Below, piece by piece: positions 9,462-40,619 of a DNA stretch of 64,000 nucleotides. This DNA comes from an uncultured Hyphomicrobiales bacterium (lineage in GTDB: Bacteria; Bacteroidota; Ignavibacteria; Kapaibacteriales; UBA2268): NCBI GenBank assembly GCA_964465945.1, contig CAYXMM010000002.1, positions 66,691 to 130,690 of the forward strand. The letters are read 5' to 3'. Made by a program: the position numbers and the translations under genes. The notes beneath the pieces are model-generated. The model made no database searches and was not told the origin of the DNA. It worked only from the letters and a program-made list of their open reading frames with translations. Position 1 is the first letter of the stretch. The number at the start of each line of letters is the position of its first letter.

Positions 9462-9538
9462 TATTTATTTGTAGTTTTGTAACAATTTTATTATTTTTGT
9501 GTTTATATAGTATTAAAAATAATAAAATAAAAAATAAA

Positions 9539-14223: not shown

Positions 14224-15525
14224 TTGTCCTTTTTTATTGTAAAACTATTAATGAATCTCTGGGCAATAATTTATAACTTATTTATAATTCCAATTTTATT
14301 TTTAACTTATAAAATTGTATCAATTTTTAATCTTAAAGTTCGAAAAAGAGAACGAGATTATTTTCATTATATTAATCAAATTCCAAAAAAAGAAAAAGGT
14401 ACTCTTAGAATTTTGATTCATTCATCTTCTTTAGGTGAGTTTGAACAGGCAAAACCTGTAATAGAAAGATTGAAACGAAACAGAGATAATATTGAAATTA
14501 TTGCTTCATTTTACTCTCCATCCGGTCTTGAAAACTCATTAAATTATGATTTTGTTGATTTTAATGTTTATATGCCTTTTGATTCACTTTCAAGAGCAAA
14601 ACAATTTACTAATATCACAAATCCTGATGTCATTGTTATGATTAGATATGACATTTGGAGAAATCACATAGCACTTTTTAAGTATAAAAGAAAGCCAATA
14701 ATATTAATAAATGCTTCTCAACCAAGTAATTACCTAAAATATTGTCCTTTTATTAAATCGTTCTACAAAGATTTATATTCATTATTCGATGAAATTTACA
14801 CATTAAATGAAGAACATTATAGTTATTTTAATAAATTAAAAATTCCTTCTGAGATTATCAATTCGGCAGACACAAGGTATGACCGAATTATAGAAAAAGT
14901 TGCTGAAAACTTAGATTCTGATTTGTTAGATAAAAAGCATTTTAAAGGTAAAAAAGTTATTGTATTTGGCTCATCTTGGGGAGAAGATGAAAATTTATTT
15001 GCAGATGTACTAAATAAATATAGAAATAGTATTTTTCCAATTATTGTTCCTCACGAACCAAGCAAAGAACATATTATATCATCAAGACTTTTATTTCCAA
15101 AATCAGTGCTTTTAAGTGAGTATTCAAAAAATTTAGACTTTGAATTTGAAGCAATTATAGTAGATAGTATTGGTAAATTACTTCAACTATATTCATTCGC
15201 AGATGCAGCATATATTGGTGGCGGAATTTCAAAAAGTGTGCATTCAGTTTCAGAGCCATCTGGTTACTCAATTCCTCTTGCTTGTGGACCTAAAATCGAG
15301 CGTTCACCAGAAGCCAAAGAGCTTAATAAATTAGGTTCGCTTAAAGTTATAAAAAATAAAATTGATGCTGAAAGCTTTATTAGTCTAGTGCTTGATGAAA
15401 AATCGTCAAAGGAATTAGGAATAATTTCAGGAAATTATATTAAGAACAAAGTTGGTGCAAGCAATTTAATTACTAATAAAATACTTTCCTTAGCCGATAA
15501 AAAAATAAATCTCATTAGAGAGTAA
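14224..15525 (+). CDS. kdtA: 3-deoxy-D-manno-octulosonic acid (Kdo) transferase, GT30
   Basis: N-terminal IHSSSLGEFEQAKPVIERLK resembles the KdtA/WaaA signature WIHAxSVGE. Size and layout fit. Confidence 0.8.
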   Translation: MSFFIVKLLMNLWAIIYNLFIIPILFLTYKIVSIFNLKVRKRERDYFHYINQIPKKEKGTLRILIHSSSLGEFEQAKPVIERLKRNRDNIEIIASFYSPSGLENSLNYDFVDFNVYMPFDSLSRAKQFTNITNPDVIVMIRYDIWRNHIALFKYKRKPIILINASQPSNYLKYCPFIKSFYKDLYSLFDEIYTLNEEHYSYFNKLKIPSEIINSADTRYDRIIEKVAENLDSDLLDKKHFKGKKVIVFGSSWGEDENLFADVLNKYRNSIFPIIVPHEPSKEHIISSRLLFPKSVLLSEYSKNLDFEFEAIIVDSIGKLLQLYSFADAAYIGGGISKSVHSVSEPSGYSIPLACGPKIERSPEAKELNKLGSLKVIKNKIDAESFISLVLDEKSSKELGIISGNYIKNKVGASNLITNKILSLADKKINLIRE

Positions 15526-17393: not shown

Positions 17394-18779
17394 TTAGTTT
17401 ATTTTACTTAGAATTTCAGTAACGACTTCTTCCATTTTCATACCTCTTGAACCTTTTACTAATATTATATCATTATCGGCTAGTGAGTTCAAAAGTTTTG
17501 AAGTTATTTCTGACTTATTTTCAAAATTAAGATTTCTATCCACACTATTATAAATTGGTCCATAAGTGTAAATTTGTGTTGTTACACTTTTAGCATTATC
17601 TAAGATTAGTTGATGTTCTTTAGCTGTTTCTTCGCCTAATTCAAGCATATCTCCGAGTACAATATGGATATTTTTCTTGTCTTTAAAACTCGATACTAAA
17701 TTAATCATTTCAGCTACGCTTCCTGGATTTGCATTGTAAGTGTCGTTTATTATTTTGATATTATTTTTATTAATAACAGAAAGTCGTCCATATTCAGTTG
17801 AAGTATCAGGAGTAAAAGATTCTAAGCCCTTTTTCACTTCTTCTTCACTTAAATCTAAGTTCAATCCAATTGCTGAAGCGGCAAGTGCATTTATTGCACC
17901 TGGGTATCCTGGTACATTAATTTTTGCAGTAAGCTCTTTTTGATTAAACTTAGCAGTTATTGTCGGCATTAAATCATCGTCATATTCAACGTCTCCAACC
18001 AGCATTGCCTCATTTGTGAATCCATAACTTACTCTCTTTTCGAGTACCATTGTATATTTTTTTAGTCGAGTATCATCAAGGTTAATATATGAGAAAATAT
18101 CGTGTTTCTTTGCGTAATTAAATAGATTTGTCTCTTCAATTTCTACTCCGTCTATGTCAATTAAAACTTCGAGGTGTTCTTTGTTAATATTAGTTATAAG
18201 AGCATGATTTGGGTTGACGATTTTGCTTAATTCTGCAATTTCACCGAAGGAATTTGTTCCCATTTCAATAACTGCAGCAGTATGACTTTCATCTAATTGT
18301 AAAAGCATAAGGGGAACGCCTAACTGATTATTATAATTTTTATAAGTTTTTAAAACATTAAACTTAGTAGATAAAACTGAAGCGATTAATTCTTTCGTTG
18401 TAGTTTTTCCGTTAGAGCCAGCAACAGCAATAATAGGAATGCTAAACCTACTTCTGTGGTAATTAGCGGTTTCACCGAGAGCTTTATAAGAGTTTTTTAC
18501 AACAATAATTGGTAAATCTTTTAATTCTTCTTTGTTTTGTATATACCAATTTTGTTCAACAAACGCAAGAGATGCGCCGAGTTCAAAAGCATCATTCACA
18601 CGACTATGTCCGTCTGAATTTGCCCCTTTTAAAGCAAAGAAAGCATTTCCTTGATTTATTGTTCTTGTGTCAATCGAAATGCCTTCTACTAAAATATCAT
18701 TATTTATATTATGAAGATCATTCTGTCCAAAAAGGATGAATAAGTCTTCAAAATTAAACTTAGCTCTATTCTTTATCAT
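17394..18779 (-). CDS. murF: UDP-N-acetylmuramoyl-tripeptide--D-alanyl-D-alanine ligase
   Basis: GSNGKTTTKE Mur-ligase P-loop; N-terminal ...FFALKGANSDGH... MurF-type motif; 461 aa. Confidence 0.85.
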   Translation of the reverse strand: MIKNRAKFNFEDLFILFGQNDLHNINNDILVEGISIDTRTINQGNAFFALKGANSDGHSRVNDAFELGASLAFVEQNWYIQNKEELKDLPIIVVKNSYKALGETANYHRSRFSIPIIAVAGSNGKTTTKELIASVLSTKFNVLKTYKNYNNQLGVPLMLLQLDESHTAAVIEMGTNSFGEIAELSKIVNPNHALITNINKEHLEVLIDIDGVEIEETNLFNYAKKHDIFSYINLDDTRLKKYTMVLEKRVSYGFTNEAMLVGDVEYDDDLMPTITAKFNQKELTAKINVPGYPGAINALAASAIGLNLDLSEEEVKKGLESFTPDTSTEYGRLSVINKNNIKIINDTYNANPGSVAEMINLVSSFKDKKNIHIVLGDMLELGEETAKEHQLILDNAKSVTTQIYTYGPIYNSVDRNLNFENKSEITSKLLNSLADNDIILVKGSRGMKMEEVVTEILSKIN

Positions 18780-19524
18780 TTTTTTCTTTCATTATTTGTT
18801 GTGTAAGCAATTCGATTTCTTTTTTGAACTTACCATTAGCAAATTTTGATTCATAAATTTTAATTAATCCGAGGGCTTCTTCATGTCTATCCATGTAATC
18901 AAGTGTTTTGATTTTCCCGAAATAAGCATCTTCAAAGTATTGAGTATCATCATATTTATTAATTACTTCATCATAATAAATTAAAGCCGCTCTTGGAGCA
19001 TCTAAAATCATATAAATTTCAGCAATATGATATTGTTTATGAGCTAATTTACCCCGAAGTACTTCAATTAATTTGTCTGCTTCTTTAGTTAAGCTATCAT
19101 TAGGGTAAACATATTGAAATTCTTGTAGTGATTCTATTGCTTTGTTGGTATATTCTTGGTCTCGTTCAAATGAAGGAGATAGCATAAAGTAGCATTTAGC
19201 AGATTTGAACATTGCCTCTTTTGCGTATTCTGTTGAAGGGTAAATTCTACGTAGGTTGTTGTAATTGAAAGCAGCTAATATATAATTGCCATCATTAAAA
19301 TCACACTCTGAGAGATAATACTGAGCTTTCTCAGCATAATTTGATGCTGGAAATTGTAATTTAATTATATCAAACTTTTGTTTTGCTTTAAAATAATCTT
19401 CATCATTAAAATATTCCATTGCTTGGTTAAAAACGGCTTCAGGAGTTTTTGATGATTCAGATTTATCCGAAGAACAAGAGACAATGCTAATTAAACTTAA
19501 AAATATTAGGAATTTTAATTTCAT
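18766..19524 (-). CDS. bamD: outer membrane protein assembly factor BamD (TPR lipoprotein)
   Basis: Lipoprotein signal (LISIVSCSS) from the internal Met; TPR-like repeats; overlaps the murF start. Confidence 0.7.
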   Translation of the reverse strand: MKLKFLIFLSLISIVSCSSDKSESSKTPEAVFNQAMEYFNDEDYFKAKQKFDIIKLQFPASNYAEKAQYYLSECDFNDGNYILAAFNYNNLRRIYPSTEYAKEAMFKSAKCYFMLSPSFERDQEYTNKAIESLQEFQYVYPNDSLTKEADKLIEVLRGKLAHKQYHIAEIYMILDAPRAALIYYDEVINKYDDTQYFEDAYFGKIKTLDYMDRHEEALGLIKIYESKFANGKFKKEIELLTQQIMKEKNDKE

Positions 19525-19846
19525 AAACAATTGGGATAAAAAATACAAAATTAATCAATTTATTTGATTTCTTGAAACTAAATCAAGAATGAATACGAAA
19601 TACGATTACGAGTTGATTAATGTTTGCAATTTATTAATTTAATAGTTTTAATTTTAAAACTAAAATATTGCTTTTGGCATAATATTTATGGAAAATAGCA
19701 ATAAATAGGTTATTTTTGGAACTTATTAAATTTGTAATTCGTAGAAATTATTCAATTTTATTAACTAATGTTAAATTATTCAGAGGTAAGCTTATATTTT
19801 CTTACTACTTATTCGTCTTTGTGAAATCCAATTAAAGTAAAATAAA

Positions 19847-22800
19847 TTGCGTATAAGCAGAAAGATATATATAACAATAACAATAATTTTTCTCTTGAGT
19901 TTAAGCAGCAATTCAGTGAGGGGAAGTTTGCTGTATAACGCAGGTCCGTTATATAGCATAGCACCTTTATACGCTTTCTCAAACTTAACTTCTACACAAA
20001 TAAACTACTTTCCTTACTTTTGGTTTCCTTTCATTGCTATGCCTCAATCTTACAGAACAGAAAGAGAACTTTTTAAACCCGATACAAGTTATAAATCAGC
20101 ATTATTTGAGCGATATGGTCGAAGATTTCATCCTGGCAAATATGATTATGGGGAGCCGAACTTGCCGGGTTATGAATTTAAAAGTGAGTATGATGATGAA
20201 ACTGGTGGTATGAAAGTTTATGAGACTTTTAATGGTCAAAAAGTTTTTTATGAGCGAGAACTTACATTAAATGAGTATTTGAATGAGGTTAAACAAAGGT
20301 ATCAGGAAAAAAAATGGGATTCTATTTCTTCTGATTATGATTTAAAGAAAGCATTTTCAGGTGGTGATTTAGCTCGACTAATGTCTACTGCGACTGGATT
20401 TTCAATTCCATTACCCCCTAATCCAATTTTTAGTATTTTCGGCTCGCCCAAGATAAGTATAAATGTCAATGGAGAGGTGAATGTGAGGGTGGGTTGGCGT
20501 TGGAATACCCAAAACTTAGGAACGGTATCTCAATTTGGTCAAACTCAATCAACACCTATTTTTTCGCAAGATATTCGAGTGAATGTAAGTGGTAGTATAG
20601 GTGATAAATTGAAATTGTCGACGGATTGGAATACTCGTCGAAGTTTCGATATGGATAATAGGTTTAAAATTGGCTTTGAAGGTGAAGATGATGATATAAT
20701 AAAGCTTGTTGAGGTTGGAAATGTATCAATGCCTTCTTATAATTCGCTTATAGGTGGAGGTCAAACTTTATTCGGGGTTAGAGCTGATTTTCAATTTGGA
20801 CCTTTATTCTTGAAAACTATTCTTTCACAAAGACGAGGTGAAAGAAGATATGTTGATGTTCAAGGTGGAAAGAACTTAAATCCTTTCACTTTACGTGCTT
20901 ATGACTATGTTCGTAATTATTTCTTTTTGAATGATGAATATAAACAAGTTTATAATGAATACTTTAAATATGCTACTCCTGTTTTACCAGTTCAATTTGA
21001 TAGTATAAGTGTAAAGGAAATTGAAGTATGGGAATCAACTACTCAACTTACAAATACTAAAGTTAGAGAGGCAGTAGCACATAATGTCTTGCCTAAATTA
21101 AGACGTGGGGAGAATTATCCGCAATCGTTAATTGATGCACCTATTACAGCGGGGAAAGTTGAAAGAGGTAGATTTCAACTACTTGATTCAACAAAATGGG
21201 AACTTGATTATAACTTAGGAACTCTAAGAATTGAGAATTTGTCACCAGATAGGACTTATGCAGTTTCGTATCGATTACAAGGTCCATCTCAATCATTAGA
21301 CGACGACCAAAGAATTGGGTATTTATCATCAGAAAGAGAGTTCAAAGAAGTGATGGTGCTTCAACTTGTTTATGTTCGTAATTTACAGCCAGGGTTCAAA
21401 GAACTTTGGGGAAGACAAATGAAGAATATTTACAATATTGGAGCTACTAATGTAGATGCGTCTTCAGCAAAAATTAATATTTGGTATTTACGTCCAAGTA
21501 ATGACTCTGTTGATGTGCTGGAAGGTTCAAATCAGAAAATCGTTACAATTTTTGGCGTTGATAGAACAGATAATAGCGGGCAGGTGCAACCTGATGGTAA
21601 ATATGATATGCGAGAGCCGTTTTTTAATGCGCAAAGAGGGGAAATTACTTTCCCAAGTGTTGAACCATTCAGAGCAGGACTTTATGCCTATTTTGATAGT
21701 TTAGGGAAAAGACAAGTTGCTGATAAATATGTTTATGGCGATGTTTATGATACAACTTGGGATGTTGCCAAAATAAATACAGCAAGAGATAGATTTATTA
21801 TTTCGGGTGAAGTTTCTGGTTCTTCTTCTAATAGAATCAGGTTAGGAGCATTTAACTTAGCCCCTGGTTCAGTTAAAATTTCTCTTGATGGTTCGCCTTT
21901 ACGAGAGTATCAAGATTTCGTTGTTGACTATTTTTCAGGGACGGTTCAACTTAGAAACCCAAGAGCAACCTTACCAAATGCAAATCTTAAAATTGAATAT
22001 GAGCAGGCAGATATATTCCAAGTTTCAACAAAAACTTTAGCAGGATTAAGGGCAGATTATAATTTAATTGATTCAAGGCGAGTCAGGTCTGATTTGGGAT
22101 TCACCTTTATGCACTATAATCAAAGCGCTGTAATCGACCAAGTGCAATTAGGGCAGGAACCAGTTGCAAATACTATGATGGGATTTGATGCAAAATTAAA
22201 TTGGGATACTCCTTGGCTTACTAAATTATTAGACTACTTACCTTTTTATGATACTAAAGCAAAATCAAATTTCGATTTTCTCGCTGAATGGGCTATGATG
22301 TTTCCTGAGCCAAATAAAAGAAAATCGGTTATACCAAGTGATGACGGTGAGTCAGTTGTTTATATTGATAATTTTGAAGCAGCTCAAAGAAGAATAACTT
22401 TGGGGTTAAATCCTTCGCTATGGTCACATAGTTCAGCTCCAGTTGATGAAACTATTGCCCCAACAGCAGAAGAACGAAACCTTTATCGTGGTTCAACTTT
22501 TTGGTATCAAAAATTTATCCCATGGATTAGACAGCGAGATGTTTACCCTGATAAACAAGTATTAATTGGACAAAATAACTTAAGCCCGTTGCAATTTTAT
22601 TTAGAGCCATACATAAGAGGTATTTATAATAATAACCCTGAGTTTCTTGACACTTTGAATCCTATGTATGATGAAAGCCAGCCACATTATATTTTAAGAA
22701 ATGGAGCAGATGGGAGATTAAATAAAGATAGAGTTTGGGGTGGTATGATGAGATTATTATCTTCATTCAATACTAACTTTGATAATGAAAATATTCAGTT

Positions 22801-25800
22801 CATTGAAATAATGATGAATGTATATAATCATGAACAGAATACAAAATTATATTTAGATTTAGGACAGATAAGCGAAGATGTTATTCCAAATGGGAAATTA
22901 AATACAGAAGATGGTATAACAGCAAAAAGCCCACTACCAAATGGCTTAATTGATATTGGAGAAGATGTCGGCATTGATGGATTAAGTAATGAAGAGGAAA
23001 AAACAAATACGGATCCAAATAAGTTAATTTTTCCATATCCATTGAGCTTGGAAGATGACCCAGCAAGAGATGATTATTTCTTTGACTTCAAACAAAATGT
23101 AAGCGACCAAGTTGAAAAAGACTTTGTCAAATATAATAATTTTGAAAATAATTCCAAAATGTCTGAAATGGGTGCTTTTCCAGATACTGAAATTTTAAAT
23201 GACAATAATGGGCAACAAATAGCCCTTGACAATAGCTATTTTAGATATGAAATTGATATTTCAAATTTGAACGAAAGCACTAATCCCCAAATAGTCGGAG
23301 GTAACCCATCTAAGGGTTGGTATTTATTTAGAATTCCAATTAGAAAACCAACTTCAAAAGTTGGTAATCCACAATTTACAAATATCCAATATGTAAGGTT
23401 AGCAGCACAGGGTGGAGTAGCACAAGTATGGATTGCAGATTGGGCTTTAGTTGGTTCTCAATGGCAGAGAATTAACACATTTCAATCAGTTCCTCCATCT
23501 GATAGTGCTATGCAAGTTTCTTTTGTTAATTCATTTGAAAATGGTTCATCTCCTGACTATTACACAATGCCTCCAGGTGTTCGCTCTCCAAGACAAATTA
23601 ATAGCCCTAATCCTCAACAGAATATTAGATTAAACGAGCAATCTCTAAGAGTTTGTGTGAGTAATTTGAAATTTGGTGAAGAAAGAATGGCAACAAGAAT
23701 TTTCCAAAATATGGATATATTCTATTATAAAAAATTGAAATTCTTTGTCCATGGCGATGGCTCTATGCCAAATGTAATTCAGCAAGGAACAATTCCTGAT
23801 GCTTATGTTTATATGCGGTTCGGTATTGATTCAAATAACTACTACGAATATAAACAACCATTAACATCGAATTGGGACGATATTGAAATTGATTTAAGGA
23901 AGCTTACTTCTATTAAACAAATCCGTGATAATAGTAAATTGAATGAAAGACAAGAGTTTCCAGCAGGAAATGGTAATCCGAATGCCACTTTTGCAATAAA
24001 AGGAACGCCAATCTTAACGCGTATAAGTTTCTTTGGATTTGGTGTTGCTAATCCAAGCGAACGTTTTCCTAATGACTTAACTACTTGTATCTGGGTTGAT
24101 GAGTTAAGATTAACTGATGCAGAAAATAGCAATGATTGGGCTGCAAATGTTTCATCTAACTTACAATTAGCTGATTTGGGAACTGTAACAGCATCAATGA
24201 ATACCAAGCAAGCGAATTTCCATAAACTCGAAGAAAGATTTGGGGATAGAAAAAATGATGGCAATTTCACCATTTCTATGCAAGGAAATTTAGAAAAACT
24301 TGCTCCAAAAGAGTTTAAACAAATGAAAATTCCAATTGCTTATACTCATGCTGAGTTATTATCTACTCCAAAATTTATAGCGAACACTGACCTTGCACTT
24401 GAAGAAGCAATGGCTATAACAAGGGATAATATTTTAGACAATGGAGGAAGTAAAGCAGAAGCAGATAGAGAAGCTAATAAACTTAAAGATAAATCAGAAT
24501 TACTTAAAGTTCAAGACCAATGGTCGCTTACTGGAATAAAATTAGGTATCCCAGTTAATCACTGGTCAATAAATGAAACTCTAAATAAGTTGAACTTTAA
24601 TTACACATATTCACAAGAATATACAAGAACCCCTGTCTATGAAAATAGGTTTAATTGGAATTGGACATTAGATGCTAATTATACAAATTCACTCCCTGAT
24701 ATTCTTGCTTTTAGCCCAACAAAATTCTTAAAAGATGTGCCTGTAATTGGGGTTTATGGAGATTGGAAATTGAACTTATTACCTTCGAATATTGGCTTTG
24801 GATTAAATATGACTAGGGGGAGACAGACAGAACAATCAAGATTCTTAACCTTTGCTTCACCTGTTGTAAGAAGTTTCTTTGCAGATAGGAAAGCTAATTT
24901 TACTTGGAAACTTAGCCAAGGTGGATTATTATCGCCAAGTATTGATTATTCGTTCAATACAAGAAGTTCATTAATTGATTTAGAGCATGATGAGTTTGGA
25001 AATCAAAGAACTGGGAGTCAAATTTCAAATGCGATGTTTTCAAATGGCTTCGATTTTGGTAGAAATACTACTCATAATCAAATGTTCACAATAAACTTTA
25101 AACCAATTTTACCAGTTGGATTTTTAAATAAATACTTGGATATGAATGGTTCTTATAATGTGAATTACTCATGGAATGACCCATTAATGCCAGACCCTGC
25201 TGTGCGTGATAGAGCAAAAAATGCTACTTATAATGGCCAGTTTCGTTATAATATAAATGTAAGTTTAAGAAGCTTTGGTGACGAAATTTTTGGAATTACT
25301 CCAAGTAAGATGTTTGGTAAAAGAAAAGATGATAAGACAGGCGAAGAAGTAACTGATTGGGGAAGTCAAATATTATTAGCTTTCAAATCCATTCTTTTAG
25401 ATTATGAGAAAATTAATATTACTTTAAGCCAAACAAATAATTCTACTAATCCAGGTGTTTTTGGTGGAACTGGTATGAGTAATTTCTGGGGTAGAGGGAT
25501 TACTGGAAGAGAGAGTTTGAATAATTTCGGACCAAGTTTCGCTTATCAAATGGGATTAACGTCTAATCCTCATGGTGGGTTTAATATATCTCCTTCAAGT
25601 AGTTTTCCATTTTTCTCTTTTGATTCTTACCCTGGTTTGAGACCACCAAATGGGCGATATCAAGATAATTACAGACAAAGCACAGATTTGAATATTGCTA
25701 CCAATAGACCTCTTTGGGAAGGAGCAACACTTGATTTAACATGGAAAACTTCACAAGCGTTTAATAGAAACCAAACTGTAATAACGGATGTTAATGGTGT

Positions 25801-26734
25801 TCCGACTTTTACAAATGTAATTGCTATGCAAACTATTGACAAATCATACATTTCTTTACCAACTATTTTCGGTTTAAATTTATTTGGTAACACAGTTGAA
25901 GATGTTGTGAAAGGTTTTGAGTTACGAAGAGATGCGATAGTCCAGAGGACAGATATTGATACACTTGAGAAAAATAAATTGTTAAACAGAGCATTAGCTC
26001 AATCGTTCTATGAAGAATTAGAAGCTTTCTCATTCTCTGGTGTTGGTCAATTAGGTCATTTCTTACCTTCAATCAACTGGGGAATAAGGTGGACTGGAAT
26101 TGAAAAATGGACAATTTGGGGAGGATATTTGAAGAAGGTTCAAGTAGATCATAACTATACGTCAAACTATTCCGAAGCGGTTCAAATCACTGATAATGGT
26201 CGAGTAATCCAAAATCAACAAGTTACAACGGGCTTCTCGCCATTAATAGGGGTGAATGTCTCATTTGATGAAGCAAAAACCAAAGGAACTTTGACTGGTT
26301 CTATTAGGTGGAATAGAACGCAAGGATATAACTTAAATGCTGCAGCAAAATCAGTAGTAACCTCACAAACAACAAATGAAATTGCGGTGCAAGCAAACTA
26401 TACAATGAATAGCTTTTCAATTCCATTTTTGGGCTTTCAACTCAAAAATGAGCTTGAGTTCAGCTTCTTGGGTTCATATAAATTCAATGGACGAGGAACA
26501 TTCGACGTATTCGACCCAACAAGTTTTTCTGGCGGACAAGAACAAGGTCGAGTATTAGATGGAAGCACTGTTGTATCAGTCGAGCCAAGAGTAAGGTATT
26601 CTCTATCAGAAAGATTAACCGCATCATTTTTCGTAAGATATGACGGTACATTCAACGTAGGAGCTTCAAACCCAGGTTTCCATACTACCCAAGTAGGTCT
26701 TGATTTCCGACTTTCAATCGCTGGTGGTAGATAG
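19847..26734 (+). CDS. sprA: giant outer-membrane protein, SprA/Sov-like T9SS translocon
   Basis: 2295-aa single ORF with a signal peptide and beta-rich composition, ending in a beta-barrel-like ...GLDFRLSIAGGR. Size and genome context (many T9SS cargo proteins) fit SprA. No sequence search was possible. Confidence 0.6.
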   Translation: MRISRKIYITITIIFLLSLSSNSVRGSLLYNAGPLYSIAPLYAFSNLTSTQINYFPYFWFPFIAMPQSYRTERELFKPDTSYKSALFERYGRRFHPGKYDYGEPNLPGYEFKSEYDDETGGMKVYETFNGQKVFYERELTLNEYLNEVKQRYQEKKWDSISSDYDLKKAFSGGDLARLMSTATGFSIPLPPNPIFSIFGSPKISINVNGEVNVRVGWRWNTQNLGTVSQFGQTQSTPIFSQDIRVNVSGSIGDKLKLSTDWNTRRSFDMDNRFKIGFEGEDDDIIKLVEVGNVSMPSYNSLIGGGQTLFGVRADFQFGPLFLKTILSQRRGERRYVDVQGGKNLNPFTLRAYDYVRNYFFLNDEYKQVYNEYFKYATPVLPVQFDSISVKEIEVWESTTQLTNTKVREAVAHNVLPKLRRGENYPQSLIDAPITAGKVERGRFQLLDSTKWELDYNLGTLRIENLSPDRTYAVSYRLQGPSQSLDDDQRIGYLSSEREFKEVMVLQLVYVRNLQPGFKELWGRQMKNIYNIGATNVDASSAKINIWYLRPSNDSVDVLEGSNQKIVTIFGVDRTDNSGQVQPDGKYDMREPFFNAQRGEITFPSVEPFRAGLYAYFDSLGKRQVADKYVYGDVYDTTWDVAKINTARDRFIISGEVSGSSSNRIRLGAFNLAPGSVKISLDGSPLREYQDFVVDYFSGTVQLRNPRATLPNANLKIEYEQADIFQVSTKTLAGLRADYNLIDSRRVRSDLGFTFMHYNQSAVIDQVQLGQEPVANTMMGFDAKLNWDTPWLTKLLDYLPFYDTKAKSNFDFLAEWAMMFPEPNKRKSVIPSDDGESVVYIDNFEAAQRRITLGLNPSLWSHSSAPVDETIAPTAEERNLYRGSTFWYQKFIPWIRQRDVYPDKQVLIGQNNLSPLQFYLEPYIRGIYNNNPEFLDTLNPMYDESQPHYILRNGADGRLNKDRVWGGMMRLLSSFNTNFDNENIQFIEIMMNVYNHEQNTKLYLDLGQISEDVIPNGKLNTEDGITAKSPLPNGLIDIGEDVGIDGLSNEEEKTNTDPNKLIFPYPLSLEDDPARDDYFFDFKQNVSDQVEKDFVKYNNFENNSKMSEMGAFPDTEILNDNNGQQIALDNSYFRYEIDISNLNESTNPQIVGGNPSKGWYLFRIPIRKPTSKVGNPQFTNIQYVRLAAQGGVAQVWIADWALVGSQWQRINTFQSVPPSDSAMQVSFVNSFENGSSPDYYTMPPGVRSPRQINSPNPQQNIRLNEQSLRVCVSNLKFGEERMATRIFQNMDIFYYKKLKFFVHGDGSMPNVIQQGTIPDAYVYMRFGIDSNNYYEYKQPLTSNWDDIEIDLRKLTSIKQIRDNSKLNERQEFPAGNGNPNATFAIKGTPILTRISFFGFGVANPSERFPNDLTTCIWVDELRLTDAENSNDWAANVSSNLQLADLGTVTASMNTKQANFHKLEERFGDRKNDGNFTISMQGNLEKLAPKEFKQMKIPIAYTHAELLSTPKFIANTDLALEEAMAITRDNILDNGGSKAEADREANKLKDKSELLKVQDQWSLTGIKLGIPVNHWSINETLNKLNFNYTYSQEYTRTPVYENRFNWNWTLDANYTNSLPDILAFSPTKFLKDVPVIGVYGDWKLNLLPSNIGFGLNMTRGRQTEQSRFLTFASPVVRSFFADRKANFTWKLSQGGLLSPSIDYSFNTRSSLIDLEHDEFGNQRTGSQISNAMFSNGFDFGRNTTHNQMFTINFKPILPVGFLNKYLDMNGSYNVNYSWNDPLMPDPAVRDRAKNATYNGQFRYNINVSLRSFGDEIFGITPSKMFGKRKDDKTGEEVTDWGSQILLAFKSILLDYEKINITLSQTNNSTNPGVFGGTGMSNFWGRGITGRESLNNFGPSFAYQMGLTSNPHGGFNISPSSSFPFFSFDSYPGLRPPNGRYQDNYRQSTDLNIATNRPLWEGATLDLTWKTSQAFNRNQTVITDVNGVPTFTNVIAMQTIDKSYISLPTIFGLNLFGNTVEDVVKGFELRRDAIVQRTDIDTLEKNKLLNRALAQSFYEELEAFSFSGVGQLGHFLPSINWGIRWTGIEKWTIWGGYLKKVQVDHNYTSNYSEAVQITDNGRVIQNQQVTTGFSPLIGVNVSFDEAKTKGTLTGSIRWNRTQGYNLNAAAKSVVTSQTTNEIAVQANYTMNSFSIPFLGFQLKNELEFSFLGSYKFNGRGTFDVFDPTSFSGGQEQGRVLDGSTVVSVEPRVRYSLSERLTASFFVRYDGTFNVGASNPGFHTTQVGLDFRLSIAGGR

Positions 26735-27052: not shown

Positions 27053-27090
27053 ACCGATAAAAAAAATAAACCTCACTCGAGAGTGAGGTT
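27053..27090 (-). terminator. Rho-independent terminator downstream of the BI-1 gene
   Basis: AACCTCACTC-GAGAGTGAGGTT hairpin with a T-run on the minus strand. Confidence 0.75.
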
Positions 27091-27120: not shown

Positions 27121-27825
27121 TTAATCTCTGTTTCCGCCAAGTAATCTTAGTAAGAATAAGAATAAGTTGATGAAGTCAAGATATAAAGTTAATGCTCCTA
27201 AGATTGCAGCTTTTGAAGCAATTTCATTTCCTTGTGATTGAACTTCATACATTTCTTTTAGTTTTTGAGTGTCGTAAGCTGTTAAGCCAGCAAATACAAT
27301 TACACCAATGATTGAAATCATCATACTAAGCATTGAGCTCGCGAAAAAGAAATTTGCTATTGTTGCAAGAATAATTCCGACTAAACCCATAAACATAAAT
27401 CTTCCTACCCCTGATAAGTCTTTTTTTGCAGTATAACCATAAAAGCTAAGTGCGGCAAATGAACCGGCAGTTATAAAAAACACATTTGCTATCGACTCTC
27501 CTGAATATACTAATGCCAGAGTTGAAAAGGTAATTCCAGTTAATCCAGAATAAAGAACAAACAGGGCAGAGGCAACCATTGAACTCATTTTATTTACTGC
27601 AGCCGAGAGAGCAAACACAAGCCCTAATGTTGCAAAGAAAAATAACCACATATAGTCTATAACACTATATACAAGACCACTATCATAGAAGTAGTAAGAA
27701 ACTCCAGCGGTAATACCAAGACCAGCTACCATCCAAGAATATACTTTATTTAAAAAAGCTCTTTGGAGTTGAGCGATTTCACTATCAGTTTTGTAAACCG
27801 AATTGTATGTATAACCTGTCTCCAT
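27121..27825 (-). CDS. Bax inhibitor-1/YccA (TMBIM) family membrane protein
   Basis: Seven-TM profile and a short charged C-terminal tail. Confidence 0.75.
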   Translation of the reverse strand: METGYTYNSVYKTDSEIAQLQRAFLNKVYSWMVAGLGITAGVSYYFYDSGLVYSVIDYMWLFFFATLGLVFALSAAVNKMSSMVASALFVLYSGLTGITFSTLALVYSGESIANVFFITAGSFAALSFYGYTAKKDLSGVGRFMFMGLVGIILATIANFFFASSMLSMMISIIGVIVFAGLTAYDTQKLKEMYEVQSQGNEIASKAAILGALTLYLDFINLFLFLLRLLGGNRD

Positions 27826-27843
27826 TTTGTCCTCTAAATTAAT

Positions 27844-28536
27844 TTAAAAATAAATCCCAACTGAAACTGATAAATAATTTTTTTTATCATTGTTAGTAAA
27901 AGTGTCTACCAAGTTTAAGACGTGAAAGCGTGCGTCTAAGTTTAATTTTAAAAGTGCTAAATTTAAATCAAAGCCAGCACCATAAGACATTCCTAATGAA
28001 TTGTATGCTCCTGTTTCTTCAATTGGAATTGTAATTGTTTTATCATCAGTAATTGGTACATCAGTTGTAAATGTAAATTTATTGTAAGAAAATTCACTTG
28101 AAGCATAGAAATTAAGAACATCTAAAGAAAGAAAGTAAAAATCAATACCAGCAGTGATTGGAATAATATTCTGAAAGGTGAAAATTGTTGCTAAAATTTC
28201 GTTCGTTTCAGGATGTTTAACTTCTAATCGGCTTTGTTGGAAGCGATGATAACCAACACTACCTTGGAGTTTGAAATAGTCATTTAAAGGAATTTTTACT
28301 CTTATACCTAAATGATAACCAAACCCAGCACCTTCTCGGATCATATTTCCAATAATTGTATCGTTCTCAACCGAGCTTATACTTTTAAATACTGGTTGAA
28401 AATCTCTATTATAAATATTATTAATTTGGTTATTTGGAGTTGATAAACCAATTTCAACACCAAAATCTACATCATCATTAGCTTTTGCTATGATATTAGT
28501 GAGAAGTAATACACCTAATAATATATATAATTTCAT
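27844..28536 (-). CDS. small outer-membrane beta-barrel protein
   Basis: Signal peptide, alternating beta-strand pattern, C-terminal ...SVGIYF aromatic beta-signal. Confidence 0.6.
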   Translation of the reverse strand: MKLYILLGVLLLTNIIAKANDDVDFGVEIGLSTPNNQINNIYNRDFQPVFKSISSVENDTIIGNMIREGAGFGYHLGIRVKIPLNDYFKLQGSVGYHRFQQSRLEVKHPETNEILATIFTFQNIIPITAGIDFYFLSLDVLNFYASSEFSYNKFTFTTDVPITDDKTITIPIEETGAYNSLGMSYGAGFDLNLALLKLNLDARFHVLNLVDTFTNNDKKNYLSVSVGIYF

Positions 28537-28566
28537 TTTTCATAATAATAATTTTCTCAAATTTAA

Positions 28567-29952
28567 CTAAAATCTATATGAAAATCCAACAAGAACATTT
28601 GTTATGTCTCTAACATTTTTATAAGATTGTCCAGAATAAACCAAAGTTGTTTCGTCATAATCACGATTTGAAAGAGATACATCAACCATTATGTTTTTTC
28701 CAATCATAACTCCGGCACCCACTGCTTTTGTTATCATAGTTCCAAGGTCAATAAATCCTTGTCTGTAAGGAGTATTATGTGATGAATATGAAGCACGTAA
28801 AAATACTGGATAGAATGGTAACTGATATTCGGCACCAACCCCCCAATCTATTTTAGCAGAAGCTAATCTTTCAGGGACAATCTCGTTCAAATCATCTGTA
28901 AAATTATCACTTGATGTAAATTTCAAATTTGACATATCCATATAACTCATAGCACCAGATAAAGTTAGTCCAACAAAATTATAAGACACTCCTAAATTAA
29001 ATTTAGTTGGAGTGATTACAGTATATTTTGATTCTCCATTACTTTTAACATCAACGTAATCTTGATTGTCGAAATCAGAAGTTGCATTAAGATTCCATTT
29101 TTCTTTAATTGTGTAAATATTTGGCAGGTCAACCGATAGAAATACTCTTGAGCTTTCTGTTGGAGTTGCCATTATTCCAATAGTTCCAGTAAACCCACTA
29201 ATATCTTGACTTAATTTTTCTGTATAATATAAAGATTTAAAGTCAACATCTGTCCAACTTGTTGCGTCGTTGATTTGATACTTATTAATTGCGTCTAACT
29301 CATCTAATTTTTTTGTGTATGAATAATCTGTGCTAAACCCGCTTATACTAAAGCCAAGTGAGAAGGTTTTATTCAATGAAAATGAGAATCCACCAGTAAA
29401 TCTTGAATTACTTCCGTCTTGAAGTAATGAGTAATTTTGTTGTAACGAGTCTTGTAGAGGCGTAATTCCGTCTTTATTAGATAGTGCTAAATCTTGCATA
29501 AATTGTTGTTTAGAATTTGCTGCAATAAAAGAGTTTTTCCCATTAAAAGTTGAAAAATTATTATAGTCATAAAAACTTTTGTCGTTAAAATAACCGAAAC
29601 CGATTACATATTTTTTACCTTCACTTTCAAACGGAGCAACAAAAGTAAAATTAGAAAGATACTGGTCTGAACGATCATTTGTAAAATTTTTACTTAAATA
29701 ATTAATATCTGAGTTAAGATACTTAACAGCAAGTCCTGCTTGAATTTCAGTTGTCGGAACAAGCTGCATACCAGCAGGGTTATAATATAGAGCTGCTCCG
29801 TCGTCATTAATGCCATAGTATGATATACCTAAGGCATTTGAACGAGGGCTAATTCCATTCTCGCTTTGTGTTAATCGTAATCCATCATCAATAAATTGAG
29901 CATTTGCTATATAGCATAGAAAAAAACTTGCTATTATAAAAATATTTTTCAT
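28567..29952 (-). CDS. outer-membrane channel, FadL/TodX/PorV-like
   Basis: Signal peptide, N-terminal ...AALYYNPAGM... (NPAG motif of FadL-like barrels), C-terminal ...VGFSYRF. The start overlaps the stop of the upstream lipoprotein gene (TAATG). Confidence 0.5.
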   Translation of the reverse strand: MKNIFIIASFFLCYIANAQFIDDGLRLTQSENGISPRSNALGISYYGINDDGAALYYNPAGMQLVPTTEIQAGLAVKYLNSDINYLSKNFTNDRSDQYLSNFTFVAPFESEGKKYVIGFGYFNDKSFYDYNNFSTFNGKNSFIAANSKQQFMQDLALSNKDGITPLQDSLQQNYSLLQDGSNSRFTGGFSFSLNKTFSLGFSISGFSTDYSYTKKLDELDAINKYQINDATSWTDVDFKSLYYTEKLSQDISGFTGTIGIMATPTESSRVFLSVDLPNIYTIKEKWNLNATSDFDNQDYVDVKSNGESKYTVITPTKFNLGVSYNFVGLTLSGAMSYMDMSNLKFTSSDNFTDDLNEIVPERLASAKIDWGVGAEYQLPFYPVFLRASYSSHNTPYRQGFIDLGTMITKAVGAGVMIGKNIMVDVSLSNRDYDETTLVYSGQSYKNVRDITNVLVGFSYRF

Positions 29953-30797
29953 TATTTACCTCTTGAATTACCACCACGTGAATTACCACCTCTTGAGTTA
30001 CCACCACGATTGTTACCTGAGTTAGTATTTCTATTTGTGTTTGAATTAGAATTTCTTGGCTCTGATACGTTGGAGTTTCCTCTATTATTTGAATTTGTAT
30101 TATAGTTTGGTTGAGAATATGATGGCTCAGAACTTTCTCTTCGGCTACTATTATTATTATTGTTTCTATTGCCGTATCTTACTTCATAGTTTTCACCTCT
30201 TTTGAATACATTTTCGCCGTTTGAAGTGTATCTTGTGGTTCTCGGATTATATTCTCTTGGGTTTGTAATTGTGTTATCGGTTCTTCTTGGATTATAGACT
30301 GAATAATTATCCCTTGAATTTCCGAAGTTTCTTTGGCTATTTTTAATAGGTCTATCTGTGTAAGAATTGCCTGAATTTGGTAACCAATATCTATTATGAT
30401 AATGATTATCATACCAATGTTGTTGCCAAGTAACTCCATAATAAGGGTGATAGGAATACCAAGGCGAGTACCATTCAGGTCCCCAATAGTTAGAGTAATA
30501 TCCATAAAATCCATATCTGCTTCTTGGAGTATTTCCCCAGCCGTAATAACCATTCCACCAAGGAACAATAACAGGAACATAGTTTGTTCCTAAATTTTGG
30601 TTGTTACTCAAGTTTTGTTTTGAATTTTGTTGATTATTTTGGTCAGACATTGGGTTTACCCAGCCATTATCATCATAATCCTCTTCGTCCTCAACAACAT
30701 CTTGACTATTACTGTAACCATAATATGGGTTATCGTAGTTATAACTTGTGCAAGCACCTAAAATTAATGTGAATGATATTAGATATAAGTATTTCAT
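29952..30797 (-). CDS. low-complexity Y/W/N/R/G-rich lipoprotein with C-terminal GGNSR tandem repeats
   Basis: Lipobox LILGAC; extreme aromatic/Asn composition; 15-bp DNA tandem repeats at ~29958..30020 encoding (GGNSR)n. Confidence 0.6.
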   Translation of the reverse strand: MKYLYLISFTLILGACTSYNYDNPYYGYSNSQDVVEDEEDYDDNGWVNPMSDQNNQQNSKQNLSNNQNLGTNYVPVIVPWWNGYYGWGNTPRSRYGFYGYYSNYWGPEWYSPWYSYHPYYGVTWQQHWYDNHYHNRYWLPNSGNSYTDRPIKNSQRNFGNSRDNYSVYNPRRTDNTITNPREYNPRTTRYTSNGENVFKRGENYEVRYGNRNNNNNSSRRESSEPSYSQPNYNTNSNNRGNSNVSEPRNSNSNTNRNTNSGNNRGGNSRGGNSRGGNSRGK

Positions 30798-30936
30798 TTT
30801 ATCACCTCTTATTGTTTATTTTATAAACGCAAAAGCGTTTAGTTTAGTTTCAATTAATTCATTAGAAATTAATTAATTTTTAAGAAATATTTTAGAAATT
30901 TAAGTTTTTAAGAATTTTATTAAATTTTGTTTAATT

Positions 30937-31806
30937 TTGACTTTTAAATTTAATGAAAAATTAATGAAATATTGTGTTTTAGTTTTCTTTTTACTTTTAG
31001 CTTGTAATCAAACACAAGGGCAAAGGGAAAGTGAAATAAGTAGCGAGGTACATAAAGGTAGTGAACTAAAGCAAGAAAGTGATGTTCAACAAAAAAAAGA
31101 ACTTAAACAAGATTCGCTTAAATTTGAGTTTGAAGTTATTGATGAAATTTATCATAATCCTGTTTTTTATACTCAAGGGTATATTTTCTTAAATGGATAT
31201 TTATATGAATCTATAGGACAATACGGGCATTCTGCTTTACATAAAATTGACCCAAATACAGGTAAATCGTTGAAAGAGACAAAAGTTGGATTTCGATATT
31301 TTGCTGAAGGTTTAGAAGTTTTAGATGACAAATTGTTTCTTTTAACATGGAAAAATGAAGTTTGCAAGGTTTATGATATTGAAACATTCTCAGAAGTAAG
31401 TGAATTTCCTTATGTAGGGGAGGGATGGGGACTTTGTGAAATTAATAATCTTTTTTATATGTCTGATGGTTCTGATAAAATTCAAATTAAAGAACCAAAT
31501 TCATTTTCAACGATTGAGAAATTTAGCATAACCGGTGAAGATAATTTACCTTTAAATGATATAAATGAGCTTGAATATGCGAAGGGATATATTTTTGCTA
31601 ATATTTGGATGACTGATAAAATAGCAATAATTGACCCAAATAAAAAAGAGTTAGTTAAGATTTTGGATTTTTCTGTTTTAAGAAAAAGATTGAAAAACAA
31701 CCCTAACGCAGAATCTTTTAACGGAATTGCTTATAACCCGAAAGAAGATATTTTTTATTTAACTGGTAAATATTGGAATAAAGTTTTTAAAGTTAAAATT
31801 AAATAA
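30937..31806 (+). CDS. glutaminyl-peptide cyclotransferase (plant/bacterial-type glutamine cyclotransferase)
   Basis: ...FYTQGYIF...LYESIGQYGHSALHKIDPNTGK... matches the QC beta-propeller family pattern (FTQGL...ESTGLYG.S). Confidence 0.8.
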   Translation: MTFKFNEKLMKYCVLVFFLLLACNQTQGQRESEISSEVHKGSELKQESDVQQKKELKQDSLKFEFEVIDEIYHNPVFYTQGYIFLNGYLYESIGQYGHSALHKIDPNTGKSLKETKVGFRYFAEGLEVLDDKLFLLTWKNEVCKVYDIETFSEVSEFPYVGEGWGLCEINNLFYMSDGSDKIQIKEPNSFSTIEKFSITGEDNLPLNDINELEYAKGYIFANIWMTDKIAIIDPNKKELVKILDFSVLRKRLKNNPNAESFNGIAYNPKEDIFYLTGKYWNKVFKVKIK

Positions 31807-40142: not shown

Positions 40143-40619
40143 TTACTGCTCCGTAGGAGTAGCACTTTCTTCTAAAATATATTTATCATCATATTCTATT
40201 TTATATGCCTCTAGTAGACTTTTATACTCTTTTTTAAAACTTACTTTTTTATGATGTTCTTTTTGATTTTCAATATAGTTAATTGTTTTCTTTAACTGAC
40301 TTTGGCTTACTGAAAATGCTGAATATCCTGTCTGCCAATAAAATCTTCCTTTAACAAATTTATTGTCTGATATCCATTTTGATGTTGATGATTTAATATC
40401 TCTTATTAAATCTGATATTAAACAATCAGGATATATACTTAATAAAATATGTATATGGTCAGTATATCCATTAATTACAAATAATTTTTGATTTTTCTGT
40501 TTTATAACTCCCGTTATATATTTGTATAACTGGTCTTCCCAATGTTCTAATATTAAGTTCTCTCGTCCTTTAACTGCAAAAACAATATGCAGATATATTT
40601 GTGTGTATGTATTTGGCAT
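40143..40619 (-). mobile_element. IS200-like / REP-associated tyrosine transposase (Y1 HuH transposase)
   Basis: 158-aa ORF with the HuH motif (DHIHILLS) and the catalytic-Tyr motif INYIENQ. Its ends are embedded in 17-bp inverted repeats: TGCTCCGTAGGAGTAGC at 40136..40152 and its reverse complement at 40651..40667. Confidence 0.8.

Follow-up and report, generated by a model that had tools for sequence, protein, structure and literature searches.

The 64,000-nt stretch of contig CAYXMM010000002.1 analysed here (hereafter the window; all coordinates are relative to its first letter) carries a closely spaced minus-strand chain of open reading frames (ORFs) of 281, 461, 230 and 234 aa. The first two encode a lipoprotein and a predicted outer-membrane (OM) β-barrel of the FadL superfamily, and this lipoprotein–barrel gene pair is the subject of the present analysis. 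The stop codon of the lipoprotein gene and the start codon of the barrel gene share a TAATG overlap, reading ...GGTAAATAATGAAA..., and the gaps that follow the barrel gene measure 30 nt and then 18 nt. Table 1 lists the features of the locus together with the neighbouring genes discussed below.

Table 1. Coordinates of the lipoprotein–barrel locus and its neighbours in the window (AF2, AlphaFold2; SD, Shine–Dalgarno sequence; T9SS, type IX secretion system).
Feature	Coordinates	Strand	Evidence
Lipoprotein gene, 281 aa, predicted intrinsically disordered (stop included)	29952..30797	-	ORF, homologues, alignment
Signal peptide and lipobox (MKYLYLISFTLILGA-C16; LILGA-C16)	30750..30797	-	Sequence reading; Cys16 conservation
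Acidic N-region, aa 17-72, net charge -9, with [YF][YF]GY.N.P and W.NP[LM]	30582..30749	-	Alignment, composition
Aromatic core, aa 73-145: YVPVIVPWW..YYGW ... YWG..WYSPWYSYHPYYG..W ... W	30363..30581	-	Alignment A5
Basic low-complexity tail, aa 146-281, net charge +13, 20 Arg, ending ...GGNSRGGNSRGGNSRGK	29955..30362	-	Sequence, homologues
15-bp tandem DNA repeat encoding GGNSR repeats	29964..30008	-	Tandem Repeats Finder: 3.0 copies, 83% matches
Barrel gene, 461 aa, FadL superfamily (BamG/PorV-like)	28567..29952	-	ORF, AF2, Foldseek, profile search
Mature N-terminus and hatch of the barrel, aa 19-68: QFIDDGLRL...NPAG	29749..29898	-	Alignments A2, A3; AF2 helices
Small OM β-barrel (OMP_b-brl), 230 aa	27844..28536	-	PF13505
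BI-1/YccA-family inner-membrane protein, 234 aa	27121..27825	-	PF01027
Terminator-like hairpin and T-run, 30 nt past the BI-1 stop	27069..27090	-	9-bp stem, 4 GC pairs, tail TATTTTTTTT
Divergent intergenic region, 139 nt: likely operon promoter and SD (AAGAGGTGA)	30798..30936	.	Sequence reading
SprA, 2295 aa, T9SS translocon, convergent to the operon	19847-26734	+	PF14349
BamD/YfiO-like lipoprotein, just upstream of SprA	18766-19548	-	
Glutamine cyclotransferase, divergent from the lipoprotein gene	30937-31806	+	PF05096, E 2e-72

The lipoprotein family and its barrel partner

The lipobox L-G-A-C places the Cys at residue 16, which is invariant in a 43-sequence alignment (A5), and a lipobox-like [..][ASG]C occurs in 40 of 44 complete unique homologues. 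The six positions after the Cys hold no acidic residue in 34 of 40 homologues and a single one in the other six. In composition the mature part of the 281-aa protein is dominated by Asn (20.8%), Tyr and Ser (11.7% each), Gly (9.1%), Arg (8.7%) and Trp (3.8%), and its aliphatic content amounts to ~7% (Ala 0%, Val 4.2%, Ile 1.1%, Leu 1.1%, Met 0.4%).

The mature chain falls into three segments. The acidic N-region spans ~60–100 aa in homologues, with a pI of ~4.1–5.4 in 32 of the 34 scored, and its [YF][YF]GY.N.P motif sits seven to ten residues past the Cys. The aromatic core that follows is ~70 aa long and, pooled over the family, consists of 24% Tyr, 12% Trp, 10% Pro, 10% Gly and 6% His, with the consensus YVPVIVPWW..YYGW…YWG..WYSPWY.YHPYYG..W…WY.QP.Y.Y…R.FG..R. 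Most invariant or near-invariant columns of A5 fall in this core: V74, P75, V76, P79, W80, P112, Y114, P118 and G121 are identical across the 43 sequences, and Y73, V78, W81, W109, Y110, Y116, H117, W124 and W138 are conserved in at least 90% of them. Summed over its 73 residues, the Wimley–White interfacial free energy comes to -18.7 kcal/mol, close to the minimum (-21.8) of the other 73-aa segments of the 64-kb sequence (mean +13.1±8.0 kcal/mol). Without being aliphatic, the core thus favours the interface as strongly as do the most membrane-seeking segments encoded in the window.

The C-terminal tail is basic and of low complexity (pooled composition 30% Ser, 12% Arg, 11% Gly, 9% Asn and 8% Thr); among 34 scored homologues its length ranges from 138 to 398 aa and its pI from 10.3 to 12.0, and its sequence drifts freely. 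The final residues follow the pattern (S/G)(G/S)(R/K/Q)R(G/T/S/R)(R/K) in about 40 of 44 homologues, the terminal residue being Lys or Arg in 39 of 44. This conserved basic C-terminus suggests a tethered terminal ligand. The RxR/RGK-type terminus (29955-29972 in the window) is kept despite the 140–400 drifting residues before it, and a basic C-terminal end also recurs in the non-homologous partners of the distant barrels L048, L052, L054, L055 and L056 described below.

Structure prediction with AF2 returned a mean predicted local distance difference test (pLDDT) score of 36.8 for the lipoprotein, with every residue below 50 and no secondary structure past the signal peptide, and the mature part is thus predicted to be intrinsically disordered throughout. 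Eleven diverse family members gave no match in Pfam or NCBIfam, and sequence searches of the PDB, whose entries for the β-barrel assembly machinery (BAM) complex include BamH, returned nothing beyond noise at E≤10. The family is undescribed and unusual in combining position-specific conservation with an aromatic-rich sequence that is predicted to be disordered. Three alternative-frame ORFs of 62–133 aa lie within the lipoprotein gene, at 30179-30580 (-), 30396-30593 (+) and 30584-30772 (+); they seem to arise from the low complexity and codon bias of the sequence, and homologues keep only the lipoprotein frame.

An earlier note, made from the window sequence alone, had reported the four minus-strand ORFs with the TAATG overlap, the LGAC lipobox and GGNSR repeats encoded by 15-bp DNA tandem repeats; all of these were recovered, the repeats in three copies. 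Its description of the lipoprotein as almost devoid of aliphatic residues is fair, save for the invariant VPVIVP, and the compositionally extreme protein that it stressed belongs to no curated family of Pfam or NCBIfam. The small OM barrel and the BI-1/YccA protein that it named were likewise borne out by family matches. The structure and disorder prediction that it proposed as a check separated a confidently modelled barrel from a lipoprotein predicted to be disordered. For the comparison of GGNSR copy number, the sole near-identical relative (P0017, 99% identity) has the same length.

The 461-aa barrel was modelled from a 16-sequence alignment with a pLDDT of 87.5 and a predicted template modelling score (pTM) of 0.82, the N-terminal helices (residues 36–47, 54–57 and 59–64) preceding the first strand. 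On the strength of this model we are confident in predicting a FadL-superfamily fold. A Foldseek search of the PDB placed Bacteroides thetaiotaomicron BamG (BtBamG; 9hiv_F) first (E 9e-20, TM-scores 0.60/0.67), followed in order by Escherichia coli and Pseudomonas aeruginosa FadL, Flavobacterium johnsoniae BamG, TodX and TbuX; the highest target TM-score, 0.70, belonged to Porphyromonas gingivalis BamG (PgBamG). Matches to FadL, TodX, TbuX and BamG ranged from E 1e-20 to 1e-13 with target TM-scores of 0.60–0.70, and the structural alignments with channels of the FadL/TodX/TbuX type showed 12–16% identity. PorV was not among the top 50 structural matches.

The mature barrel begins with a Gln (Q19) that follows an AxA signal-peptidase site. 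Q19, R37, N58, P59, A60 and G61 are invariant in alignment A2, and Q19, R37 and N58–G61 (the NPAG motif) each occur in at least 90% of the 150 family members of alignment A3. Across the family, a mature Q-[FY]-[IV]-E-D-A-L-R after the AxA site, the NPAG motif and a C-terminal YRF can be recognized. By hand count, the NPA residues occupy mature positions 40–42 here, 33–35 in FadL and TbuX and 44–46 in BtBamG; the distance from the mature N-terminus to NPA is thus 7 residues longer than in FadL/TbuX and 4 shorter than in BtBamG.

At the sequence level, the window barrel alone matched no Pfam family (PF03349 included, E≤0.1) and no NCBIfam model, and neither the single window barrel, nor the sequence P0016, nor a 16-sequence profile gave a link to PDB sequences. 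The barrel family is sizeable: out of 1.84 billion representatives, the A2 profile retrieved 1029 clusters (50% identity) at E≤1e-30 and 3676 at E≤1e-10. A profile built from the best 150 family members did reach PDB sequences, in the order TbuX (E 1e-11), BtBamG (1.7e-11), CymD (8e-10), P. aeruginosa FadL (7e-8), TodX (about 1e-7), PorV (5e-7), E. coli FadL (7e-6) and PgBamG (1e-5). Among 76 family representatives, PF03349 (Toluene_X) matched 58 at E≤0.01 (best 1.1e-19), and the NCBIfam matches comprised BamG (61), PorV_fam (57), PorVQ2 (41), PorQ (15), PorV (9), AupA (9), FilD (7) and E. coli FadL (3). The best E-value for the BamG model NF053685 was 6.5e-25; when ten members were scanned singly against it, six scored 27–60 bits (cut-off 250) and four gave no match. 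PorV_fam reached no more than 52.7 bits (cut-off 90) and T9SS_OM_PorV 33.5 (cut-off 250) (models NF033709, NF033710 and NF033711). Since all NCBIfam matches lie far under their curated cut-offs, the barrel is, by its sequence, a distinct FadL subfamily and an equivalog of neither BamG nor PorV. The weak affinities lean towards the protein-docking branch (BamG, PorV, PorQ) of the Fibrobacterota–Chlorobiota–Bacteroidota (FCB) group. A role as PorV or another T9SS component, suggested by the nearby SprA gene, was considered and rejected, because the SprA adjacency is confined to the window, the PorV models score below cut-off and PorV is not a top structural match.

Distribution of the gene pair and its genomic surroundings

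A motif search with back-translated YVPVIVPW and PWY[SDN]YHPY detected the lipoprotein in 39 species-level genomes, all of them metagenome-assembled genomes (MAGs). Of those record titles that are informative, most name Candidatus Kapaibacterium, Kapaibacteriales, Kapabacteria, Ignavibacteriae or Bacteroidetes, and Kapaibacterium is placed in Bacteroidota by NCBI. Many third-party-annotation (TPA)-assembled MAGs that carry the module (e.g. L016, L018 and L022) are titled 'uncultured Hyphomicrobiales bacterium', almost certainly a mislabel, judging by gene content. Among 5.8 billion proteins, a 43-sequence profile of the N-region and core retrieved 37 clusters at 90% identity, and those with a source name were called 'hypothetical protein'. 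The lipoprotein family is therefore small, clade-restricted and unannotated.

When the four window proteins were compared by tblastn with the fetched loci, the barrel lay directly downstream of the lipoprotein wherever the sequence sufficed. By ORF calling, the gap between the two genes is -4 to +51 nt in most loci, with exceptions in L028 (a miscalled overlap), L014 (84 nt), L032 (276 nt) and L041 and L045 (barrel not adjacent). All-against-all clustering of the ORFs of ~45 non-redundant loci, most of them from MAGs with a Kapaibacteria label, recovered the lipoprotein family in 45 loci and the barrel family in 43, with no other conserved neighbour; the small barrel and BI-1 genes occur in only three loci, namely the window and its two closest relatives, and the adjacency of SprA and of glutaminyl cyclase is not conserved. 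No second strong FadL-like gene was found in any locus examined. Because only the lipoprotein and the barrel stay together as other neighbours vary, the conserved unit consists of these two genes. In homologues down to ~26–30% identity the reading frame and motifs persist and the two genes remain paired, so the observation is not due to chance. Collectively, these results show that the pairing is real and robustly conserved, and that the operon of four genes and the nearby SprA are incidental to it.

The arrangement also reaches beyond the lipoprotein family. All seven more distant barrels examined, with ~23–37% identity to the window barrel, have an upstream gene whose product carries a Ser/Asn/Gly/Arg low-complexity tail with a basic end, and six of the seven upstream genes encode complete lipoproteins with aromatic patches. 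L050 and L051 retain clear lipoprotein homologues upstream of the barrel. In L052, from a MAG labelled Candidatus Kapaibacterium, the partner is a 516-aa lipoprotein with YYGGRGYYG repeats and the tail end GRSR; in L054 it is a 184-aa lipoprotein with an IPWW motif and the tail end KRKFRKRK. L048 and L055 each encode two lipoproteins that start with C-Y-T-[QMV] and contain W/Y-rich patches, the shorter of each pair having PWW- or SWW-type motifs, and their tails end in NRRSR, NNRR, GRNGR and GRGR. In L056 only the 3' end of the upstream gene is present, and it encodes a basic low-complexity tail. The barrel–lipoprotein theme thus extends beyond detectable lipoprotein homology.

The genes around two of these distant pairs hint at stress- or signal-dependent expression: in L055 (453-4415) the lipoproteins directly follow an extracytoplasmic function (ECF) sigma factor and a putative anti-sigma factor, and in L048 (1-6470) the same strand carries a sigma-54 two-component system upstream, separated from the module by a single gene of opposite orientation. 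L056 (2090-2785) additionally encodes a small OM-barrel-like protein of ~230 aa after the barrel, as in the window; homology between it and the window small barrel (27844-28536) was considered and set aside as not significant (E 0.23).

In the window itself, the short gaps, the TAATG overlap and the terminal hairpin make co-transcription of all four genes plausible. The 230-aa protein passes the Pfam gathering score of PF13505 (E 1.7e-8, 35.3 bits, cut-off 28.7). The 234-aa protein matches PF01027 strongly (E 3.2e-59, 200.6 bits, cut-off 34.1); its score against the NCBIfam YccA equivalog, 26 bits, lies far under the cut-off of 353, so it is a BI-1 family member and not a YccA equivalog. Both genes are lineage-specific passengers of the operon. 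A scan for sigma-70 promoters was indistinguishable from shuffled sequence (25 sites, 24±5 expected), and no Rfam family scored above threshold in the region that includes the divergent intergenic stretch. The perfect palindrome TAAACGC-AAAA-GCGTTTA at 30824-30841, 27–44 nt upstream of where the lipoprotein gene begins, may serve as an operator or form a hairpin in the 5'-untranslated region.

The window has ~30% G+C and encodes SprA, proteins with T9SS C-terminal domains, a BamD-like lipoprotein and glutaminyl cyclase, a gene content indicative of Bacteroidota. In other loci neither the SprA nor the BamD/YfiO-like gene stays beside the module. Almost every barrel in the family begins its mature chain with Gln after the AxA site, and the adjacency of the glutamine cyclotransferase gene is not conserved elsewhere; under the Bacteroidota 'Q-rule' such N-termini carry pyroglutamate, and the mature Gln of the barrel fits it. 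An IS200/Y1-type transposase gene (40143-40619, -) and a complete gene for an MmeI-type (type IIG) restriction-modification enzyme (43212-45947, -) lie in a stretch of lower GC content (0.26–0.29) that may represent a small mobile or defence island. Two further genes, for KdtA and for a 1550-aa VWA/ASH-domain protein (9497-14161 (+) and 14224-15525 (+)), have counterparts that directly flank the module in L001 (11777-16915), where the VWA/ASH-domain protein also has a T9SS C-terminal domain. In the window ~11.5 kb, with genes for SprA, BamD, a Mur ligase and an M28 peptidase, separates them from the module; a rearrangement or insertion has therefore taken place between the module and these genes.

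Candidate roles of the pair

The closest known system is the BamG–BamH pair. BamG, an essential barrel of the FadL-like kind, has an extended and conserved N-terminus that threads its lateral opening, and BamH is a surface lipoprotein whose conserved lipidated N-terminal tail lies in the BamG groove, wedged between strands (PMC12611786; PMC12578637). BamG2 and BamH2 form a putative operon, with adjacent G2/H2 paralogues in F. johnsoniae and B. thetaiotaomicron (PMC12578637), and bamG and bamH have consecutive locus tags in Ignavibacterium album, Salinibacter ruber, Gracilimonas, Chitinophaga pinensis, Fibrobacter succinogenes, Gemmatimonas aurantiaca and Caldithrix abyssi (PMC12611786 Suppl. 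Table 1). BamG/H are reported to be universal in Bacteroidota and to correlate with the possession of SprA (PMC12611786). Structures of the system are PDB 9hiv, 9hj3, 9hjm and 9n2d.

Of the claims in the earlier note, the description of the barrel as a FadL/PorV-like channel holds for the FadL-like fold, which AF2, Foldseek and the profile search agree on, and fails for PorV, which is not the closest relative. Its four-gene envelope operon consists of real ORFs in an arrangement restricted to a single lineage, and the conservation of the lipoprotein–barrel pairing, which it had asked about, is seen across the homologous loci. The coupling of a low-complexity lipoprotein to an OM channel operon was not something it recognized as described; the coupling of a lipoprotein gene to a FadL-like barrel gene was already on record, bamH/bamG adjacency having been described in 2025 (PMC12611786; PMC12578637). 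The computed results speak neither for nor against the adhesive, condensate-forming or mineral-binding role that it suggested for such sequences.

The gene pairing, the fold class of the barrel, and the conserved architecture and predicted disorder of the lipoprotein are directly supported. By analogy with BamG–BamH, we tentatively favour, at somewhat less than even confidence, a conserved two-gene OM module in which a 14-stranded FadL-superfamily barrel of protein-docking type (from the branch of BamG, PorV and PorQ and not an importer of fatty acids or toluene) and its cognate disordered lipoprotein would form an obligate complex; because BamG–BamH is the closest known system, a physical complex is the most economical reading. 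Translational coupling of the two genes would ensure that the proteins are made together. The lipoprotein would be lipid-anchored in the OM, and its [YF][YF]GY.N.P and W.NP[LM] motifs and Trp/Tyr/Pro core would become ordered only on binding the barrel and the membrane interface, a step for which BamH, with its lipidated N-terminal tail in the BamG groove, offers a precedent. The Ser/Arg/Gly/Asn tail of 140–400 residues would stay disordered and act as a flexible spacer, presenting its terminal RxR-type motif to a polyanion such as LPS, peptidoglycan, anionic lipid or nucleic acid. So understood, and with the same guarded confidence, the module may be an envelope-structural or envelope-tethering device that follows the BamG–BamH principle with no recognizable orthologue of either protein.

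This BamG–BamH-like complex draws support from the pairing, which holds in all loci with sufficient downstream sequence except L041 and L045 and recurs at the seven distant barrels; from the structural and NCBIfam affinities of the barrel and its longer N-terminus; and from the lipoprotein's invariant yet predicted disordered, interface-seeking core and its conserved basic end. Several points weigh against it. The AF2 models cover single chains; the complex, its topology, the tail ligand and the membrane face on which the tail lies are inferences. The AF2 alignment of the lipoprotein held only 10 sequences, so part of the apparent disorder may reflect a shallow multiple sequence alignment. L041 and L045 carry the lipoprotein without an adjacent barrel. 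Finally, the barrel retains the NPAG hatch motif of FadL, and the 150-sequence profile is as close to the toluene channel TbuX as to BtBamG, which together leave room for a transport role.

That role has been weighed as a FadL/TodX-type uptake channel for hydrophobic or aromatic compounds, with the lipoprotein as a substrate-capturing or gating accessory. The conservation of the hatch motif across the family, the profile matches to TbuX, CymD and TodX, the PF03349 matches in 58 of 76 relatives (and AupA in nine) and an aromatic core that could stack with aromatic ligands all speak for it, yet the ~45 loci share no neighbouring genes of catabolism or fatty-acid metabolism, the nearest curated models belong to protein-binding subfamilies and a basic disordered tail of such length has no obvious part in uptake. 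To our knowledge, characterized FadL channels need no lipoprotein, and we consider an uptake role quite improbable. It is very improbable indeed that the two proteins do not interact and are merely co-expressed in the envelope, the lipoprotein alone serving as an adhesin, a condensate former or a matrix-, extracellular-DNA- or mineral-binding protein. The lipoprotein does resemble adhesive and RGG-like low-complexity proteins in composition, and L041 and L045 fit such independence; the overlapping or abutting stop and start codons are nevertheless kept down to ~26–30% identity of both proteins, the pairing persists where the lipoproteins are no longer detectably homologous, and no other gene is kept with either partner. 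The idea that the W/N/S-rich sequence is a precursor of a ribosomally synthesized and post-translationally modified peptide, or darobactin-like, was dropped, as no modifying enzyme is conserved nearby in the ~45 loci.

A reading that is unlikely, although it merits serious attention, takes the pair as the Kapaibacterial bamH–bamG locus itself, with a divergent BamG bound to the back of BamA and a disordered lipoprotein replacing the folded BamH canopy. It would account for the gene adjacency in the lineages named above (PMC12611786), for the reported universality of BamG/H alongside SprA, which the window encodes, and for BamG being the best structural match and the commonest NCBIfam match of the relatives; the module, moreover, occurs widely in the class, with one copy per examined locus, and the N-terminal extension of the barrel is highly conserved. 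Yet the relatives score far below the BamG cut-off and the window barrel does not match the model at all, the profile comes no nearer to BtBamG than to TbuX, and the lipoprotein resembles no PDB chain, including the BamH of BAM complex entries, is predicted to be unfolded and has no BamH-K acidic export signal. The regulated-looking two-lipoprotein loci L055 and L048 also give the impression of a conditional accessory rather than an essential core. The lipoprotein as a BamH homologue of the Bt4306/Fjoh_0823 type was rejected, with neither sequence nor fold in its support.

An improbable further option makes the barrel a private conduit: the unfolded lipoprotein would be threaded through the FadL-type lumen, its lipid or N-terminal segment would leave by the lateral opening and its tail would be displayed on the surface, much as in Slam–substrate and RcsF–OMP pairs. 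The gene pairing does resemble a translocon with its substrate, and a wholly disordered chain rich in small polar residues, as predicted here, would be threadable. Because the acidic lipoprotein export signal is missing, any surface exposure would need another route. The FadL family has a lateral opening, through which in BamG a polypeptide passes (PMC12611786; PMC12578637). Against a conduit stands the retained FadL hatch with its NPAG motif, which would plug the lumen. We also know of no FadL-family member that translocates a protein. Taken together as one proposition, that the FadL-family barrel is a private anchor or conduit for a disordered lipoprotein whose Trp/Tyr/Pro core becomes ordered only inside or against the barrel and the membrane interface and whose polybasic tail is threaded out and displayed, or else that the disordered lipoprotein has replaced the folded BamH canopy in a Kapaibacterial BAM, is rather unlikely.

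What is new here is the lipoprotein family, which was undescribed; the design of a FadL-like barrel with an adjacent lipoprotein was already known, although lipoprotein-docking FadL-like barrels were recognized only in 2025, with BamG–BamH. The module can be viewed as a natural variant in which the barrel is kept and its lipoprotein partner is pared down to several invariant aromatic motifs and a disordered basic tether. If the proteins bind, these motifs would constitute a minimal barrel-binding code, and the two genes would give a simple handle on what the lateral opening and extended N-terminus of FadL-like barrels do for a protein partner. The family would also add a rare bacterial case of an aromatic-rich envelope protein that is disordered and yet conserved position by position. 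Should the pair be the Kapaibacterial BamGH, the 'essential' BamH canopy would be replaceable by an unfolded protein; should either the conduit/anchor or the BamH-replacement reading be true, the module would provide the first barrel-dependent, fully disordered lipoprotein subunit in an FCB outer membrane, together with a self-contained way of placing lipoproteins that needs no acidic export signal. The module is valuable above all as a minimal, naturally occurring setting in which to study what a FadL-like barrel contributes to its lipoprotein partner.

Comparison with known systems

Trp/Pro/Arg-rich interfacial peptides such as indolicidin and tritrpticin, and RGG/SR-type low-complexity domains, are sequences of the kind found at membrane interfaces that bind LPS, nucleic acids or other polyanions. 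The W/Y/P core and S/R/G tail of the lipoprotein may be likened to them in composition only, and they are short secreted peptides or eukaryotic domains, whereas the present protein is a lipid-anchored bacterial one with position-specific conservation. Lipoproteins whose topology depends on a β-barrel are known from RcsF with OmpA/C/F and from Slam pairs, in which translocon and substrate genes are adjacent; the analogy would lie in a lipoprotein with a disordered charged segment that is placed by a partner barrel. RcsF relies on general porins and contains a folded sensor domain, Slam belongs to another barrel family, both are proteobacterial, and neither is homologous to the Kapaibacteria pair.

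The fold, the N-terminal hatch, the NPA(G) motif and profile E-values of 1e-11 to 7e-6 link the barrel to the FadL/TodX/TbuX/CymD channels (PF03349), from which it differs in its longer, strongly conserved N-terminus, the obligate adjacent lipoprotein gene and the absence of a catabolic context. PorV, PorQ and PorV2 are FadL-like barrels of the same phylum that dock partners (cargo C-terminal domains, PorU and PorZ) instead of importing lipids, and 57, 15 and 41 of the 76 relatives, respectively, show weak NCBIfam matches to them. These matches stay below cut-off, no PorV ranks among the top 50 structures, the SprA adjacency is not conserved, and the partner here is a lipoprotein without a T9SS C-terminal domain.

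BamG–BamH shares the most with the pair: a FadL-like 14-strand barrel, a conserved N-terminus longer than that of FadL, a gene beside a lipoprotein gene, the best structural match (BtBamG) and the commonest NCBIfam match of the relatives. The differences lie in the equivalog scores of the barrel; in an N-terminal extension of ~7 residues here and ~11 in BtBamG (hand count), BamG being characterized by a tail about 10–12 residues longer than in FadL; and in the partner, BamH being a folded crescent or two-domain protein with an acidic export signal, in contrast to a Kapaibacteria lipoprotein that is predicted to be disordered, aromatic and basic and whose positions after the Cys, judged by the definition in PMC12578637, carry no such signal. 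As the lipidated N-terminal segment of BamH binds BamG, comparable binding may be envisaged here. Given the adjacency of bamG and bamH in many FCB lineages, a lipoprotein gene beside a FadL-like barrel gene is an established arrangement of this group and probably an ancestral one.

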